From: a virus
IMG/VR virus record: IMGVR_UViG_3300020041_000003
Coordinates: 1-6,129 of that record
Length of the DNA: 6,129 nucleotides
Direction: 5' to 3' (one strand)
How positions within the stretch are numbered: the first letter of the stretch is position 1; every line of letters starts with the position of its first letter. Under the pieces are notes generated by a model. That model saw nothing but the letters and a program-made list of their open reading frames with translations, was not told where the DNA came from and searched no databases. Of the stretch, positions 2,897 through 6,129 are shown piece after piece. Position numbers and translations under genes: made by a program.

Positions 2897-4267
2897 ATGC
2901 CTGCTCCTATTGCCCCTATTGCCGCATCCTTTGGTCAAGCTCTTGGTCAATCCGCCGCCTCTACGGGTGCTACAGGTTTGATTTCTGGCGCCCTCGGTCA
3001 GCTTTTCGGAGGCATGAATGCCCGTCGTCAGTGGCGTTTCCAGCAAAAGCAAATGAAGCTTCAACAGCAGTACGCTTTGGAGCAAATGCAGAAGCAGTCA
3101 GAGTTGTCTTATGCTAATTGGCAGAAACAATTTGATTATGAAAATGCCTATAATGATCCTTCGAAACTTTTCGCTCGCTATTTGAAGGCTGGTGTTACCC
3201 CCGCGGCCGTCCTTGGTTCTTCGGGTGTTGGTGTTAACGCTACTATGTCAGGAGGTTCTGCTGCTATGCCTTCCGCTGCTGGTCCTTCTGGCGGTTCTCC
3301 AGTTAGTCCCGGTGCTTCGCCTGTTGCCGACCCTACTGCTATCGCGCAGAATATGGTTGCGCAGTCAACGGTAAGCCGTAACGATGCTGCCGCTAATCGC
3401 GATAACGCTGAGGCTCAGTCGATTAATGACCAGAATGTTGGCAACCAGCTTTATGTCGCTATGGCTCAGGCTCGTGTAGCCCTTGATGAGGCAGTAACAA
3501 AACATAACTTAGCAGCTCATGATGTTCTTCGAGTTCAAGAGGATATAGAAAAGAATAATCGATTTATTTCTGATTCTACCCTTTTGAGTGTCGTTGATGA
3601 AAAGAAGAATCAAGCTGCTTATGTTGCTGCATTAGTTAAGCGTTTAGGTATTGAGAATGATAATTTGGGTGCACTTATGTCTGCTCAGGCTTTTATGATG
3701 AACACTCAGGGCGTACTCAATCAGATTCTCGGCGACCAGGCTCGAGAGGTGATTGAATCCCTTCGTCTCAATAATCTTGATTCTGCCTATGAGCTTTCGC
3801 GTAATTGGGATAAGCGTTTTGACATTGAAATTCCGAATCCTCAGTACGAAAGGAATCTTCGTAGTTCTAACCCCATTACTCGTGGTAATCCTGGCCCTAG
3901 TTCTTTCAAGGTTTCGATGTCTCTTAAAGACTTTTACGATAAGACCGTTATAAATCAGGCAAATGCTTCTGAGTTCCTCCCCGAACAGGCTCGCATTGCT
4001 CTTCGTAACGCAAAACTTGATCCGTATGTTGAAATTTCTAAGGCCTTGGTTGGTGCGGCCGCTAGTATTACCGGTGCAGGTATAATCCGTGGAGGCATGT
4101 CTCGCGCGTCTAAGACTATCTCTGCTGGCGGTTCTACTAGTGATTCTGCCGGCTCTTCGCTCACAACTCGTTACGATTCGAGAGGAAATCTTGTTGGTTA
4201 TGCGAAAACAGAGATGACTCGTGGCACTCATTCGAGCTCGTACAATACTACTCGAAGGTATCGCTAG
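2897..4267 (+). CDS. VP2: Minor capsid / DNA pilot protein (Microviridae VP2 / phiX174 H-like)
   Basis: A 456-aa ORF. The Gly/Ala-rich N-terminus has GxxxG-type spacing (IAASFGQALGQSAASTGATGLISGALGQLFGG). It is followed by a Q/K-rich helix and the block YENAYNDPSKLFARYLKAGVTPAAVLG, which matches the conserved VP2 pattern N-x-P...Q/R-x-x-R-x-K-x-A-G-x-N/T-P. There is a central coiled-coil-like region and G/S/A-rich low-complexity tracts. Its position after VP1 is typical. Confidence 0.85.
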   Translation: MPAPIAPIAASFGQALGQSAASTGATGLISGALGQLFGGMNARRQWRFQQKQMKLQQQYALEQMQKQSELSYANWQKQFDYENAYNDPSKLFARYLKAGVTPAAVLGSSGVGVNATMSGGSAAMPSAAGPSGGSPVSPGASPVADPTAIAQNMVAQSTVSRNDAAANRDNAEAQSINDQNVGNQLYVAMAQARVALDEAVTKHNLAAHDVLRVQEDIEKNNRFISDSTLLSVVDEKKNQAAYVAALVKRLGIENDNLGALMSAQAFMMNTQGVLNQILGDQAREVIESLRLNNLDSAYELSRNWDKRFDIEIPNPQYERNLRSSNPITRGNPGPSSFKVSMSLKDFYDKTVINQANASEFLPEQARIALRNAKLDPYVEISKALVGAAASITGAGIIRGGMSRASKTISAGGSTSDSAGSSLTTRYDSRGNLVGYAKTEMTRGTHSSSYNTTRRYR

Positions 4268-4280
4268 AATTGTTGTTTTT

Positions 4281-4311
4281 TTTGCATTTTAGATTTTTGT
4301 TGTTATATTTG
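4281..4311 (+). promoter_or_regulatory. Bacteroides-type sigma-A promoter candidate (-33 TTTG, -7 TAnnTTTG)
   Basis: TTTG at 4281..4284 and TATATTTG at 4304..4311 are separated by 19 nt, in the AT-rich 70-nt spacer after VP2. This is the only place in the window where I found both elements together. The ATG at 4338 lies about 20 nt downstream of the expected start site. Confidence 0.5.
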
Positions 4312-4337
4312 CGCTATAAACCAATAACCGTATTGTT

Positions 4338-4643
4338 ATGAAAAAGAATCAAAATTTCAAAGTTGACAAGCTGGCGATCGATGTTATAGAATACGCGTTC
4401 GTTGAGTGGCTTATTCGTCGGGGAATATTTGCTGCCTTTAGGGCGAACTATGACCGCATCCCTACGGCTCGGAAAACCTTTCGAGACTGCTTGCGTGAGC
4501 ACATCCAGTATGTTTATCGTGTATCTCACCTTGGTCCCGAGGCTCTCATCTCCTCGGCTTTTCTGTTTACTTCAGCTCCTGAGGGTTACGAATTCTGGAT
4601 TAAGCACTCTGACGCTTGGAGGCGTTTTTACGAAGAGCTTTAA
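4338..4643 (+). CDS. Hypothetical protein (101 aa), first gene of the accessory cassette
   Basis: A clean ORF after the promoter candidate, with T3-rich codons and a +1 shadow ORF (4402..4647). The C-terminal block SSAFLFTSAPEGYEFWIKHSDAWRRFY resembles a (S/T)-x-E-G-x-x-(F/Y)-W...W pattern that I recall from small phage and Bacteroidales hypothetical proteins. I cannot assign a function. Confidence 0.65.
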   Translation: MKKNQNFKVDKLAIDVIEYAFVEWLIRRGIFAAFRANYDRIPTARKTFRDCLREHIQYVYRVSHLGPEALISSAFLFTSAPEGYEFWIKHSDAWRRFYEEL

Positions 4644-4666
4644 ATGAAACGTTAAATTATATTATT

Positions 4667-4990
4667 ATGACACAGGTTCATATCGTTATCCGTCGTATTA
4701 GTCCGGCCCTTAAGGTCGATTTTGTTCAGGTAGGTTGTATTAAAGATGATCAGTTTTCGACACTACCTCTTGATGCTCTTGATCGTACTCCAGTTTCTGA
4801 TTTTGTAGAGCAGTCTAGTATCTCTACTTCGCCCTATATCAATCATTGTCAGATCCCTAGCCTTGTAGAGGCCCTGATTGCGTATCCTGATTTTTCGATT
4901 GATTTCTTCGATAATACACTTGTTCTTATGTTTGGTACTGATCTGACTCACGATGAAAGCGCGTCGAAAGAAGAAGGGAAAGGGCACTAG
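4667..4990 (+). CDS. Hypothetical acidic protein (107 aa from ATG 4667; ORF track start 4616 would overlap the previous gene)
   Basis: The ATG at 4667 follows an AT-rich spacer (aaattatattatt), like the other starts. Third positions are T-rich (gtt cat atc gtt atc cgt cgt att agt...). The product has about 16 D/E and 7 K/R. The TAG stop at 4988..4990 is followed by an intrinsic terminator. Confidence 0.6.
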   Translation: MTQVHIVIRRISPALKVDFVQVGCIKDDQFSTLPLDALDRTPVSDFVEQSSISTSPYINHCQIPSLVEALIAYPDFSIDFFDNTLVLMFGTDLTHDESASKEEGKGH

Positions 4991-5033
4991 AGTAGTGACC
5001 CGCCCGCTTGGTGGAAGAGTTCTTTAACTCGTT

Positions 5034-5072
5034 GAGCCCCAGGAGATTCCCCTCTCCTGCGGGTTCTTTTTT
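5034..5072 (+). terminator. Rho-independent terminator
   Basis: GAGCCC-CAGGAGA (5034..5046) pairs with TCTCCTG-c-GGGTTC (5053..5066). That gives 13 bp with one bulged C (5060), one G-T wobble and the loop TTCCCC. It is followed directly by TTTTTT (5067..5072) and lies 44 nt after the stop at 4990. Confidence 0.7.
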
Positions 5073-5076
5073 ATTC

Positions 5077-5163
5077 ACCGGTTTACCGGTATATCCCAAA
5101 CGAAGTGGAGCCACGGAGGCCGAAGACGCGCAGCGTCCCAGCCGTTAAGGCTGTCGGCCGGCG
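5077..5163 (+). other. GC-rich structured non-coding element (tandem ACCGGT palindromes plus a three-way-junction fold); candidate ssDNA origin or primosome/packaging signal
   Basis: ACCGGT occurs at 5077..5082 and 5085..5090. An outer stem GGCCGA (5118..5123) / TCGGCC (5154..5159) encloses hairpin GACGC-gca-GCGTC (5125..5137) and hairpin CAGCC-gttaa-GGCTG (5139..5153). No +-strand ORF covers this region. Confidence 0.4.
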
Positions 5164-5200
5164 AAACGTAGTAATTGATGCTAAGTAATATTTTTAAGTT

Positions 5201-5401
5201 ATGGATTATTTTGATTTTAAACCTAGATATTCCCCTATTATTGATAGCGTCCCTCATCGTTATTCCGTTGGCGCATATCGTGGTAGAAAGCGAGTTATTA
5301 TTGCTTGGTTTGCTGACGAAAGTCCTGCAAAAGACTATCTTACCCGCTGTCGTCTTACCAACCCTTATGTTAAGTTTGACTGTCTTAGAAGTCTTTTTTA
5401 A
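5201..5401 (+). CDS. Small basic hypothetical protein (66 aa) whose stop overlaps the Rep start
   Basis: The TAA stop (5399..5401) overlaps the Rep ATG (5401..5403) as TAATG. Third positions are T-rich. The overlapping 91-aa hydrophobic ORF 5175..5450 sits in its +1 frame, as expected if 5201..5401 is the real frame. It has about 12 K/R and 7 D/E. No family is recognised. Confidence 0.5.
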   Translation: MDYFDFKPRYSPIIDSVPHRYSVGAYRGRKRVIIAWFADESPAKDYLTRCRLTNPYVKFDCLRSLF

Positions 5402-6129
5402 TGGCTTGCTCATCTCCCATATGGATACGAAATCGTCGTTATTTCGATAAGAAGAATCCTTGTCGTAATGGTTCCGACGCCGCCAAGTCCGCTTTGGCTC
5501 TCCGCCCCTGGGATACTGCTCGCCAGTGGCTAATGGTTCCCTGCGGAAAGTGCGAAGACTGCTTGCGTCGTCAGCGTAACGATTGGTTTGTTCGACTTGA
5601 GCGTGAGCTTGCTCGTTGTAAAGCCGATTCTCAGCAGGCTATTTTTATTACGATAACTATAGCTCCTAAGTATTACGAGGAGGCATTGATTGATCCGACT
5701 CGTTTTATTCGACGGTGGAACGAGCGTGTCCGTCATAACCTTGGTCACTCCTTTAAACATGCGTTTTTCCAGGAGTTTGGCACCCATCCCGAAGTTGGCT
5801 CTGAGCCGCGCCTACATTTCCATGGTTTCTTGTTCGGGACTAATGTTCTATACAACGAAATCCGGAAGGCTGTCGGAGACCTTGGGTTTGTTTGGCTCGG
5901 AAAAGGTACGCATAAACGAGCTCGATATGTTGTTAAATATGTTACTAAACAGATTCAGTTTAACCCCGAAGATGTTTCGGGCAAATTTGTTACTCTAAAT
6001 GGAAAACCTACACCTTTATCTTGCCTCCTCCAACATCGCCGTTATACGCGAAAATTCGTATCTGCTGGCGTTGGTGATTTTCTTGGTTATATGCCTCGCC
6101 CTTCTGCTCGTGTTTCGTCGTGGTCTTAT
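5401..6129 (+). CDS. VP4: Replication initiation protein (Microviridae VP4 / phiX174 A-like HUH endonuclease), N-terminal part; open to the window end, continues at 117..458 after the circular junction
   Basis: Hand translation gives MACSSPIWIRNRRYF...VPCGKCEDCLRRQRNDWFVRL (Cys cluster). It continues with IFITITI (motif I, 5641..5661), LHFHGFLF (HUH motif II, H-F-H at 5815..5823) and RYVVKYVTK (motif III with two Tyr three residues apart, 5926..5940, as in the phiX174 A protein). There is no stop before 6129. Confidence 0.9.
   Translation, partial: MACSSPIWIRNRRYFDKKNPCRNGSDAAKSALALRPWDTARQWLMVPCGKCEDCLRRQRNDWFVRLERELARCKADSQQAIFITITIAPKYYEEALIDPTRFIRRWNERVRHNLGHSFKHAFFQEFGTHPEVGSEPRLHFHGFLFGTNVLYNEIRKAVGDLGFVWLGKGTHKRARYVVKYVTKQIQFNPEDVSGKFVTLNGKPTPLSCLLQHRRYTRKFVSAGVGDFLGYMPRPSARVSSWSY
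6014..6129 (+). repeat. Terminal redundancy, copy 2 (identical to 1..116)
   Basis: See copy 1. This copy lies inside the Rep coding sequence, so it is an overlap from circular assembly or permutation rather than a biological terminal repeat. Confidence 0.95.

Follow-up and report, generated by a model that had tools for sequence, protein, structure and literature searches.

The transcription layout of phiX174 comprises the promoters P_A, P_B and P_D and the leaky terminators T_J, T_F, T_G and T_H. The gokushoviruses Chp2 and phiMH2K carry small acidic non-capsid genes between VP2 and Rep: this slot holds VP3, the internal scaffold, in both viruses and VP5, a non-structural protein, in phiMH2K only. 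For Alpavirinae proviruses and related gut microviruses, only VP1, VP2 and VP4 are recognizable (PMC3091885, PMC3394797); Krupovic and Forterre (2011, PMC3091885) and Roux et al. (2012, PMC3394797) named the ORF that follows VP1 as the putative scaffold, and the gene pair after VP2 is not characterized in these two studies. For gut microviruses that belong to neither the phiX174 nor the gokushovirus group, functions are recognized for the capsid, pilot and Rep proteins only, and about one third of the genome is unassigned. A further layout that invites comparison is that of tailed-phage morons, which combine a promoter motif, small non-core ORFs and a terminator.

Here we analyze a block that consists of a promoter, two small genes (ORF1 and ORF2) and a terminator, located between the genes for VP2 (the pilot protein) and Rep in a viral contig of 6,129 nt, which we refer to as the window. 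The contig is circular: its first 116 nt are identical to its last 116 nt, which gives a genome size of 6013 nt. As in phiX174, the genome is small and circular with all genes on one strand, an internal promoter (here predicted) would boost a subset of the genes, the unit is not cut off from the preceding genes by a terminator, and the intergenic space just before the replication gene contains a hairpin with a T-tract, as that between H and A contains T_H and P_A. In contrast to phiX174, the predicted promoter belongs to the Bacteroidota -33/-7 class rather than the sigma-70 class, and it precedes genes that have no relationship to D/E/J or B/K/C. The block recalls Chp2 and phiMH2K in having small acidic non-capsid genes between VP2 and Rep, but ORF1 and ORF2 show no profile similarity to gokushovirus VP3 or VP5 (hhalign probability ≤2%, no Pfam hit), and no VP3- or VP5-named protein is among the BFVD fold matches listed for either of them. 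With the Alpavirinae and their kin the virus shares a gut habitat, an association with Bacteroidota and conserved small ORFs; the present lineage is not assigned to the Alpavirinae. It shares with morons the promoter motif, the small non-core ORFs and the terminator, and differs from them in the fixed position of ORF2, an ordinary base composition, a promoter that appears older than ORF1 and a terminator that is shared genome-wide.

Results

The comparison set comprised 89 related genomes, and gene-order counts were taken over 90. The order VP1-ORF98-ORF100-VP2-(ORF1)-ORF2-IGR-(ORF66)-Rep was found in 90/90 genomes. ORF1 was found in 84 of the 90 and ORF2 in 86, the absences falling mostly on truncated contigs. 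Comparison across the relatives confirms the predicted promoter, ORF1, ORF2 and the predicted terminator as genuine, conserved features that recur in about 90 genomes. The base composition is also close to that of the rest of the genome and in this respect not moron-like: GC content ranges from 0.39 to 0.47 over positions 4200-5100, compared with 0.41-0.54 elsewhere, with only a mild dip over ORF2.

All relatives found are of fecal origin, and an SD-like motif precedes none of the genes of the window (0/8). From these two features and from the -7 box described below, we infer that the host is a member of the Bacteroidota; the conserved promoter/terminator map points to the same group. When 185,579 species genomes were searched, first with the ORF2 profile and afterwards with that of VP1, neither a prophage copy nor a host was revealed; a search of the whole window against Rfam gave no match either. 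The VP1 relatives found, 78 in number, do not include the Bacteroides fragilis microvirus phiHBP1 (6319 nt, encoding an M15A peptidase; PMC13064476), which is uninformative about ORF1 and ORF2.

The predicted promoter lies on the + strand in the spacer between VP2 and ORF1. It consists of a -33-like TTTG (4281..4284) and a -7 element, TATATTTG (4304..4311), which together form a Bacteroidota-type TTTG-N19-TAnnTTTG match, the -7 element being identified by its motif and by its conservation in relatives. The pattern TTTGN{17,23}TANNTTTG occurs a single time in the window (4281-4311, + strand, spacer of 19 nt), as expected from the claim that this is its only complete Bacteroides-type promoter. 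In a single genome the motif alone is not significant, since 0.29 matches would arise by chance and at least one is present in 48 of 200 shuffled sequences. Across genomes, the TAnnTTTG box is present in the ∼75-nt spacer between VP2 and the next ORF in 73 of 80 genomes, compared with 0.044 expected per spacer, and the 7 exceptions carry one-mismatch versions of the box in the same place. The box lies 25-27 nt from the ATG in 66 genomes; in the window, the distance to the ATG of ORF1 is 26 nt. There are three TANNTTTG matches in the window, among which the one at 4304-4311 is the only intergenic one, and this box is the only intergenic -7 box that recurs among 68 complete genomes. The -33 element is conserved less than the -7 box, and the full two-part motif, searched with a spacer of 17-23 nt, is present in 50 of the 80 relatives. 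The box is followed by an A/T-rich leader with no Shine-Dalgarno sequence (4312..4337, + strand; ..GTAAACCAATAACC..), whose conservation extends to the spacers of the relatives. In PQ006260 and MG945141, both of which lack ORF1, the box is still found upstream of ORF2. Thus the promoter is not cargo brought by ORF1 and, judged from this comparison, predates it.

At the other end of the block, a GC-rich hairpin of 13 pairs with one bulge and a 6-nt loop (5034..5066, + strand; arms 5034-5046 and 5053-5066) starts 43 nt past the stop of ORF2 and is followed directly by a T6 tract (5067..5072, + strand), as in the stem and tail of an intrinsic terminator. This hairpin is the most stable 40-nt fold of the genome (-22.1 kcal/mol), so that the strongest hairpin with a T6 tract in the window does lie at 5034..5072, where it had been placed from the window alone. 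Of 84 genomes, 83 have a GC-rich hairpin with a T-rich tail downstream of ORF2; the stem sequences differ, and the T-rich run is conserved (consensus TnTTTTTT, one T being invariant). Owing to register shifts, RNAalifold found no more than a portion of the stem in a MAFFT alignment, and we therefore counted pairing explicitly on the structure derived from the window. In this count, 90% of the pair cells were paired, compared with 38-54% when the 3' partner was slid, a comparison that somewhat favors the window structure, since the structure was taken from one sequence. Double changes were found in 49 cells, compared with 27.8±4.2 in shuffled alignments (observed value reached in 0/500 shuffles), and both sides were altered by compensatory changes in 7 of the 13 stem pairs. 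In some relatives, additional hairpin modules are found within the loop of the terminator.

We found no terminator-like site between VP2 and the promoter or ORF1, and transcripts from upstream should therefore read into the unit. The hairpin itself probably ends all rightward transcripts, beyond those of ORF1 and ORF2 alone. The block had been described as an apparently autonomous transcription unit; with no terminator upstream of its promoter and with its hairpin in a shared intergenic region, it is probably not autonomous.

That intergenic region (4991-5200) comprises 210 nt of non-coding sequence and is the single large one of the genome. Its folding z-scores are -3.9 as RNA and -4.0 as DNA, and the two local folds of greatest stability in the genome both lie within it. 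It also contains, upstream of the hairpin, a nearly invariant non-coding element, ACCCGCCCGCTTGGTGGAAGAGTTCTTTAACTC (4998..5031, + strand), with mini-hairpins at 5000-5014 and 5017-5030. The columns of this element are invariant or near-invariant among 55 diverse genomes; the first mini-hairpin helix is 98.9% paired and the second 89.8%, with 2 pairs changed on both sides. We consider the element a candidate Rep or replication cis site.

ORF2 (4667..4990, + strand) encodes a protein of 107 aa with a pI of 4.5 and a net charge of -9, in agreement with the charge estimated originally. The AF2 model (pLDDT 88, pTM 0.78) shows an alpha/beta domain (residues 1-95) followed by an acidic C-terminal tail, ..E..SKEEGKG(H/N), which is disordered in the model (pLDDT<50) and conserved nonetheless, its residues being shared by at least 80% of 78 unique sequences. 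The family forms 204-451 clusters at 90% identity, with nearly all members 107 aa long, and its median dN/dS of 0.26 indicates purifying selection. The BFVD matches listed for the ORF2 model are exclusively uncharacterized microvirus proteins, and they include a 174-aa protein and a 127-aa protein of Microvirus mar42. By their size, we identify these as the ORFs directly after VP2 in Poophage and mar42, two viruses whose VP1 is 55% and 38% identical, respectively, to that of the window; both ORFs also end in an acidic C-terminus. Since ORF2 is syntenic in 86/90 genomes and its fold-level relatives follow VP2 in distant microviruses, we conclude that ORF2 is an older, lineage-wide gene. Little further diversity was gained, among the matches listed, from an additional homology search that started from a broad alignment of ORF2.

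ORF1 (4338..4643, + strand) encodes the mildly basic protein that had been described, of 101 aa with a pI of 9.1 and a net charge of +3. It is modeled as a single five-helix domain (AF2, pLDDT 86, pTM 0.80) and has the C-terminal motif F.F..[ST]PEG..FW......W. The family forms 224 clusters at 90% identity on ∼6-kb contigs, nearly all members being 101 aa long, and it is also under purifying selection (median dN/dS 0.30). Its alleles fall into discrete, reassorting classes with 28-84% identity to the window protein, and it is absent from at least six genomes (PQ006260, MG945141, MK765655, L065, Poophage and mar42).

An exhaustive HMM search of 1.84 billion proteins with the ORF1 profile collected 89 relatives, multi-repeat proteins included, with E-values down to 4e-8; the domain occurs in singletons of 77-81 aa and in repeat proteins with 2-4 copies. 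The BFVD matches of the ORF1 model are uncharacterized proteins of Sipho-, Myo- and crAss-like phages. Two phage protein families without described function, PHROG 16354 and PHROG 10949, are matched by 15 and 13, respectively, of 16 ORF1-family members (E up to 0.1). These matches are weak, with a best E of ∼6e-4, and lie over the C-terminal F.W..TPEG..FW region; the window protein itself matches with partial cover of the profiles, at E 0.05 over positions 35-67 of 76 in one and at E 0.009 over positions 51-75 of 80 in the other. Three ORF1 homologues each lie in an array of small, co-directional ORFs, and in two cases genes for phage replication or recombination are also present (RecE-like exonuclease, endonuclease VII/HNH, YopX, AAA_24). 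A tblastn search of GenBank phages with the distant ORF1-domain proteins P0331 and P0310 gave no match, and a cluster look-up of ORF1-domain proteins returned no functional names, just one 'hypothetical protein'. ORF1 belongs to a family, as yet undescribed, of small early-region proteins of tailed phages. ORF1 looks like an accessory gene that was acquired later, because it is missing from several relatives and outgroups and its domain recurs in tailed-phage early regions and in tandem repeats.

We compared both proteins with the known proteins of microviruses and with general collections. In hhalign, ORF1 and ORF2 gave probabilities of ≤4% against VP3, VP5, J and phiX174 B, C, D, K and E; the values were 0.2% (ORF2) and 0.1% (ORF1) for VP3 (PF09675), whose profile is thin with two sequences, and 0.1-0.4% for phiX174 C. 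Neither ORF matched anything in Pfam, NCBIfam, PADLOC or the PHROGs with assigned function, and a sequence search of the PDB gave no match beyond 8fje. This match (8fje_A 'E8', E = 9.8e-5, to ORF2) is spurious, since it consists of four weak designed-protein repeats on one ORF2 segment, with i-E-values of 5.5 or worse. A beta-hairpin/PLD likeness between residues 16-36 of ORF2 and 49-71 of VP5 had an E of 0.07 with two VP5 sequences; we rejected it, as E rose to 0.52, with a probability of 0.1%, when a 20-sequence VP5 profile (IMG/VR) was used. For ORF2, no named mimic or anti-defense family is among the BFVD matches listed, and PADLOC, which contains defense rather than anti-defense models, was negative. 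These results uphold the original prediction in that neither ORF has recognizable structural or replication motifs: the profile searches against microvirus core proteins were all negative, with VP3 and VP5 at ≤2% for both ORFs, and both ORFs are conserved as coding sequence, under the purifying selection noted above.

The genes of the block diverge rapidly. The mean pairwise distance is 0.53 for ORF1, 0.40 for ORF2 and 0.46 for VP2, compared with 0.125 for Rep, and these three are the fastest-evolving genes of the genome; their divergence also fits host-interaction or arms-race genes. The alleles of ORF2 reassort freely relative to those of VP1 (Spearman 0.09) and ORF98 (0.06), and their distances correlate with those of physically adjacent genes only. 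A mirror-tree test of allele distances against ORF1 and ORF2 showed the effect of adjacency only, with no sign of an interaction partner.

Discussion

Our comparison shows that the block has been inherited vertically as a conserved expression unit of this gut microvirus lineage and was not picked up recently as a cassette. The moron-type module of the original prediction is therefore retained only in part. It suits ORF1, which is patchy and has a domain common to tailed phages, but it does not suit ORF2, which occupies the same slot in nearly all relatives as well as in Poophage and mar42, and both ORFs are under purifying selection. Nor do the promoter and terminator belong to the module in the manner of a moron: the promoter persists without ORF1, and the terminator is part of the main, shared intergenic region.

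The explanation that we prefer, with a probability of roughly 0.5 for the whole, is a conserved unit in which ORF2 is a helper in the phage cycle and ORF1 an accessory, host-directed module. In this mechanism, the Bacteroidota-type -33/-7 promoter in the VP2-ORF1 spacer would give transcripts that start ∼20 nt upstream of ORF1, add to the read-through from upstream genes and end at the hairpin and T-tract (5034-5072), the predicted main intrinsic terminator of the genome. We propose that the extra promoter shifts the dose in favor of ORF1 and ORF2 over the other genes. ORF2 may then act as a non-structural helper that takes part either in assembling the capsid or in switching to the synthesis and packaging of ssDNA, and it could dock to a basic partner through its acidic SKEEGKG tail. 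Such a role in assembly or packaging is suggested by position, conservation, charge and elimination; the free reassortment of ORF2 and VP1 alleles does not favor tight co-evolution with the capsid. One sub-lineage would have gained the ORF1 domain by insertion after the promoter and ahead of ORF2, and there the domain may serve as an accessory, host-directed binding module.

These results reveal no new kind of system. They sort the genes of one abundant fecal lineage, with ORF2, ORF98, ORF100 and ORF66 being lineage-wide and ORF1 accessory, and they tie ORF1 to an undescribed small-protein domain that is also found in tailed-phage early regions and in tandem repeats. They also raise the questions of which protein is the scaffold, and what the binding partners of the acidic tail and of the ORF1 domain are.

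Several observations can be read differently. The hairpin and the 210-nt region could be mainly ssDNA replication signals (a Rep recognition/nick site or a site of complementary-strand priming), a role compatible with that of a terminator, in which case the boundary of the cassette would be partly coincidental. The region lies directly upstream of ORF66-Rep, folds equally well as ssDNA and contains the two most stable local folds; its 34-nt element is nearly invariant despite the divergence of neighboring coding sequence, and the extra hairpin modules in the loop of some relatives fit such signals as well. The complementary-strand origins of phiX174 and G4 are also intergenic hairpins. We nevertheless consider this reading somewhat unlikely, because a T-rich run is conserved immediately after the stem, a feature peculiar to intrinsic terminators, because the invariant element is separate from the hairpin and upstream of it, and because a stem whose sequence varies freely under maintained pairing is easier to reconcile with a signal read by its structure alone than with a Rep site recognized by sequence. 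It also seems unlikely that ORF2 is the internal scaffolding protein of the lineage, an analogue of gokushovirus VP3 or phiX174 B, with ORF98 being something else: the scaffold role has been given to the ORF after VP1 (PMC3091885, PMC3394797), and in this genome that ORF is ORF98, which is acidic and highly conserved. Moreover, ORF2 has no profile similarity to VP3 or B, no VP3- or scaffold-named protein is among the BFVD matches listed, and ORF2 does not co-vary with VP1 alleles. What speaks for a scaffold is that ORF2 comes directly after VP2, as VP3 does in Chp2 and phiMH2K, that ORF2 and Chp2 VP3 both have a net charge of -9, that the conserved docking-type tail recalls, by analogy, the coat-binding C-termini of scaffolds, and that phiX174-type B proteins typically evolve fast.

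The functional reading first offered for the block was a moron-like module acting on the host, with the acidic ORF2 as a DNA mimic or anti-defense factor and ORF1 as its regulator or partner. We find this improbable for a gene whose slot is fixed in 86/90 genomes and in distant outgroups, as morons are patchy; the composition is near that of the genome, purifying selection is dominant, the promoter is kept upstream of ORF2 where ORF1 is absent, PADLOC was negative, and the only PDB sequence match was to a spurious designed repeat protein. On the other side stand the lack of any match of ORF1 and ORF2 to microvirus core proteins, their position as the fastest-evolving genes apart from VP2, the discrete reassorting allele classes of ORF1, a domain typical of tailed-phage early, host-takeover regions, the strong acidity of ORF2, and the promoter motif of the pair with a terminator behind it. 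Very doubtful, in our estimate, is a further version in which ORF1 and ORF2 together form a host-directed counter-defense/takeover unit, ORF1 being a horizontally exchanged binding domain in common with tailed dsDNA phages and ORF2 being an acidic, mimic-type inhibitor that is kept lineage-wide because all hosts carry its target. If this were true, it would contradict the reported genetic isolation of microviruses (PMC9239249).

Two further observations involve ORF98. In relatives, a median of 70% of the length of ORF1 is open in the +1 frame, and the corresponding value for the +1 frame of ORF98 is similar (0.69); we therefore take the open frame in ORF1 as chance and reject a gene overprinted on it. 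In addition, the VP3-like scaffold ORF predicted for Alpavirinae (PMC3091885) corresponds in position to ORF98 and not to ORF2.

Results

The contig is circularly permuted, with 116 nt identical at both ends (1-116 = 6014-6129), indicating a circular genome of 6013 nt. Every gene lies on the + strand: VP1 (462-2261; Pfam Phage_F, PHROG 514), the acidic 98-aa ORF98 (2274-2570), the 100-aa ORF100 with a signal peptide and lipobox (2593-2895), the VP2 pilot protein (2897-4267; PHROG 8689), ORF1 (4338-4643; 101 aa, pI 9.1), ORF2 (4667-4990; 107 aa, pI 4.5, net charge -9), a non-coding region of 210 nt, the basic 66-aa ORF66 (5201-5401), and the 356-aa Rep/VP4 (from 5401 round the junction to 458). 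None of these eight genes is preceded by a Shine-Dalgarno-like motif, which, together with the -33/-7 type of promoter and the faecal origin of all relatives, leads us to infer a host within the Bacteroidota. No integrated copy was found in the 185,579 species genomes searched.

To place the two ORFs in context, we compared the window with 9 of the 64 related faecal microviruses found in GenBank by DNA similarity and with 80 IMG/VR loci encoding ORF2 relatives. A single gene order holds throughout the 90 genomes analysed; an ORF2-like gene is present in 86 and an ORF1-like gene in 84, the gaps being mostly truncated contigs. Conservation as coding sequence, set beforehand as a test, was upheld: both ORFs are under purifying selection, with median dN/dS (NG86) of 0.30 for ORF1 and 0.26 for ORF2, compared with 0.11 for VP1, 0.08 for ORF98, 0.09 for Rep and 0.26 for VP2, all rough values because dS is near saturation. 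At the protein level, ORF1 and ORF2 evolve about three times faster than VP1, ORF98 or Rep, and about as fast as VP2. Gene-to-gene correlations of pairwise distance track physical adjacency only, which indicates frequent recombination inside this microvirus lineage. VP1, VP2 and ORF1 fall into separate identity classes that reassort between genomes (loci L001-L009 and L017-L096 of the comparison); examples, as identity to the window, are ∼68% or ∼90% for VP1 and 45-55% or 80-94% for VP2.

The original prediction described a self-contained promoter, two-ORF and terminator cassette at 4268-5072. Each of its parts, the two ORFs included, is where it was placed. For the promoter, TTTG-N19-TATATTTG, with the -7 box at 4304-4311, is the sole match in the window to TTTG-N17-23-TAnnTTTG. 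The motif alone is not significant (0.29 matches expected; at least one in 48 of 200 shuffles). The -7 box is kept in relatives: 73 of 80 genomes have it in the VP2-to-next-ORF spacer (∼75 nt), where its density over the rest of each sequence predicts 0.044 per spacer. Its distance from the ATG is 25-27 nt in 66 genomes, and the seven genomes lacking an exact box have one-mismatch versions at the same place; no other intergenic -7 box recurs among the compared genomes. In 40 of 68 genomes a second recurrent TAnnTTTG box (TAAGTTTG) is found within the 3' end of ORF66 (5371-5378), 22 nt before the start codon of Rep; it overlaps conserved KFD codons, so that a Rep promoter and coding constraint are not separable here.

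The predicted terminator is likewise present. Its hairpin (5034-5066), with T6 immediately after it (5067-5072), is the most stable 40-nt fold of the genome (-22.1 kcal/mol), and folding of the entire intergenic region is far stronger than that of shuffled sequence (z ∼ -4, as RNA or DNA). Of 84 genomes, 83 have a GC-rich hairpin and T-rich tail downstream of ORF2, their stem sequences being quite unlike one another. On a 55-sequence alignment, the window structure is 90% paired, versus 38-54% when the 3' partners are slid, and double-change cells number 49, versus 27.8 ± 4.2 after shuffling (observed value reached in 0 of 500). What probably does not hold is the autonomy of the unit: we found no terminator-like site between VP2 and the promoter, so upstream transcripts should read into ORF1 and ORF2, and the hairpin and T-tract, located in the single large intergenic region immediately upstream of ORF66-Rep, are more plausibly the shared end of rightward transcripts than a private terminator. 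In phiX174, T_H and P_A are located in the H-A intergenic region, the analogue of this arrangement. Upstream transcripts would thus run on through ORF1 and ORF2, whose own promoter would raise their dose on top of read-through, and all rightward transcripts would end in common at the hairpin.

The 210-nt region probably carries replication signals too. A non-coding element of 34 nt at 4998-5031, ACCCGCCCGCTTGGTGGAAGAGTTCTTTAACTC, hardly varies among 55 diverse genomes, whereas the adjoining ORF2 protein is just 51-90% identical. It contains two mini-hairpins, with compensatory changes in the second, and is a candidate site for recognition or nicking by Rep, or for a different replication signal. 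At 5118-5160 lies another GC-rich hairpin, branched and lacking a following T-run (-19.7 kcal/mol per 40 nt), which may prime synthesis of the complementary strand; some relatives instead have a related GGCCACCGCGAAGCGGTAAGG module inserted within the loop of the terminator. Viral strand and mRNA are of one sense, so transcription and replication roles are inseparable by sequence analysis. The cis elements of the promoter-to-terminator block all fall into familiar, unexceptional classes.

The absence of recognisable core motifs from ORF1 and ORF2 was borne out. Neither matched Pfam, NCBIfam or PADLOC, and ORF2 had no meaningful match in PHROG. Profile-profile probabilities were at most 4% for the ORF1, ORF2, ORF98, ORF66 and ORF100 families against known microvirus small proteins (VP3 and VP5 of Chp2/phiMH2K; J/ORF8 proteins; B, C, D, K and E of phiX174). 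A local resemblance of ORF2 to VP5 vanished once the VP5 profile grew to 20 sequences, and the only PDB sequence match of ORF2 (8fje) is a designed repeat protein and spurious. The profile and AlphaFold/Foldseek comparisons proposed earlier, run on the proteins singly, gave uncharacterised relatives and no family of described function.

The AlphaFold2 model of ORF2 (140 sequences) is an alpha/beta domain (pLDDT 88, pTM 0.78) with a tail disordered from about residue 96. Despite this disorder, few parts of the protein are as well conserved as the tail motif E..SKEEGKG, a combination suggestive of a short docking motif. The BFVD matches listed by Foldseek are all uncharacterised microvirus proteins, one of them 174 aa long and another, of 127 aa, from Microvirus mar42; from their sizes we identify these two with the ORFs next after VP2 in Poophage MBI-2016a and mar42, phages with VP1 55% and 38% identical to that of the window. 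The C-terminal ends of both are acidic, and the N-terminal pattern M..[IV].[LI]V....ISP..K of ORF2 recurs in the mar42 protein. Given these counterparts, ORF2 is a lineage-wide gene, always directly after VP2, or after ORF1 where that is present.

ORF1 has a different distribution. It is absent from PQ006260, MG945141, MK765655, the IMG/VR locus L065, Poophage and mar42, and in the first two the promoter box is kept, upstream of ORF2. By parsimony, ORF1 would have been inserted in a sub-lineage between a pre-existing promoter and ORF2, and later lost in a few members. It is the most divergent gene of the genome (mean pairwise distance 0.53), with discrete, reassorting allele classes. The ORF1 AF2 model is a five-helix domain (pLDDT 86, pTM 0.80) with no PDB neighbour; the BFVD matches listed for it are a microvirus homologue and, at lower strength, uncharacterised proteins from Sipho-, Myo- and crAss-like phages of the gut. 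Of 16 family members, 15 matched PHROG 16354 and 13 matched PHROG 10949, neither a family with a described function.

An exhaustive ORF1 HMM search of 1.84 billion representatives gave 89 proteins at E up to 1e-3, in three groups: ∼100-aa microvirus-type proteins, 77-81-aa singletons, and 180-520-aa proteins with the domain in 2-4 tandem copies. The motif [FW].[WF]..[ST].EG..[FY]W..[hydrophobic]...W is common to all of them, and no Pfam domain was present in any. The ORF1-type domain is an undescribed, repeat-forming family. Five metagenomic proteins of 308-519 aa (P0293, P0299, P0302, P0305, P0310) carry 2-4 tandem ORF1-type domains and no Pfam annotation, and are set in arrays of small unannotated ORFs (loci L014, L180). 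Around three of the homologues, small ORFs run in long arrays, all in one direction, and two of these neighbourhoods include RecE-like exonuclease, endonuclease VII/HNH, YopX and AAA_24; we take the neighbourhoods to be tailed-phage early regions. The best reading of ORF1 is that of an accessory binding module from a phage-wide family. An 81-aa ORF in the +1 frame within ORF1 (4402-4647), a frame open over a median 70% of ORF1 in relatives, is probably a chance occurrence rather than an overprinted gene, since the +1 frame of ORF98 behaves alike.

Discussion

What might ORF2 do? Our tentative reading, with a probability of roughly 0.35-0.4, is that it is a non-structural protein aiding either assembly or the change-over to ssDNA synthesis and packaging, and that it would dock via its acidic tail. 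This reading draws on its retention by the whole lineage, its position in the gokushovirus VP3/VP5 slot, its acidity, like that of Chp2 VP3, and a conserved disordered C-terminal motif of the kind used by scaffold and adaptor proteins. Against it, ORF2 alleles do not co-vary with those of VP1 or ORF98, and the scaffold candidate of related gut microviruses, the predicted VP3-like protein of Alpavirinae proviruses, is the ORF after VP1 (PMC3091885, PMC3394797), the positional counterpart of which is ORF98. Genes that interact with the host could likewise diverge as strongly as ORF1, ORF2 and VP2 do. An anti-defence or DNA-mimic role, the direction taken by the original prediction, we consider unlikely.

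ORF1 and ORF2 are already annotated in GenBank relatives as hypothetical proteins, and the whole block adds one more case to the small genes of non-model microviruses that have no assigned function. Mildly new are the distinction between a lineage-wide gene (ORF2) and an accessory one (ORF1), the conserved disordered tail of ORF2, and the link of ORF1 to a repeat-forming domain of tailed-phage early regions, the last because gene sharing between microviruses and other phages is reported as rare (PMC9239249).

Other small genes

ORF98 (net charge -11) is the most conserved small ORF (67-92% identity, dN/dS 0.08), with a homologue in Poophage (E = 3.5e-45) and no profile similarity to VP3. ORF66 (pI 9.5) is conserved in 81 of 90 genomes, though unannotated in several GenBank relatives, and may be a DNA-binding, packaging (J/VP8-like) or Rep-accessory protein; its stop codon shares one base with the Rep ATG, an overlap that suggests translational coupling. 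ORF100 is the genome's only membrane-targeted product: its Met38 form (internal start 2704) reads MSDTKLPFYKSKAFWTLVSSIVAALAAFFLAS|C, a signal peptide and lipobox, and it is a candidate lysis or exclusion lipoprotein. It is found in 87 of 90 relatives at 47-98% identity to the window (mostly 76-98%), and its Poophage homologue scores E = 7e-19.
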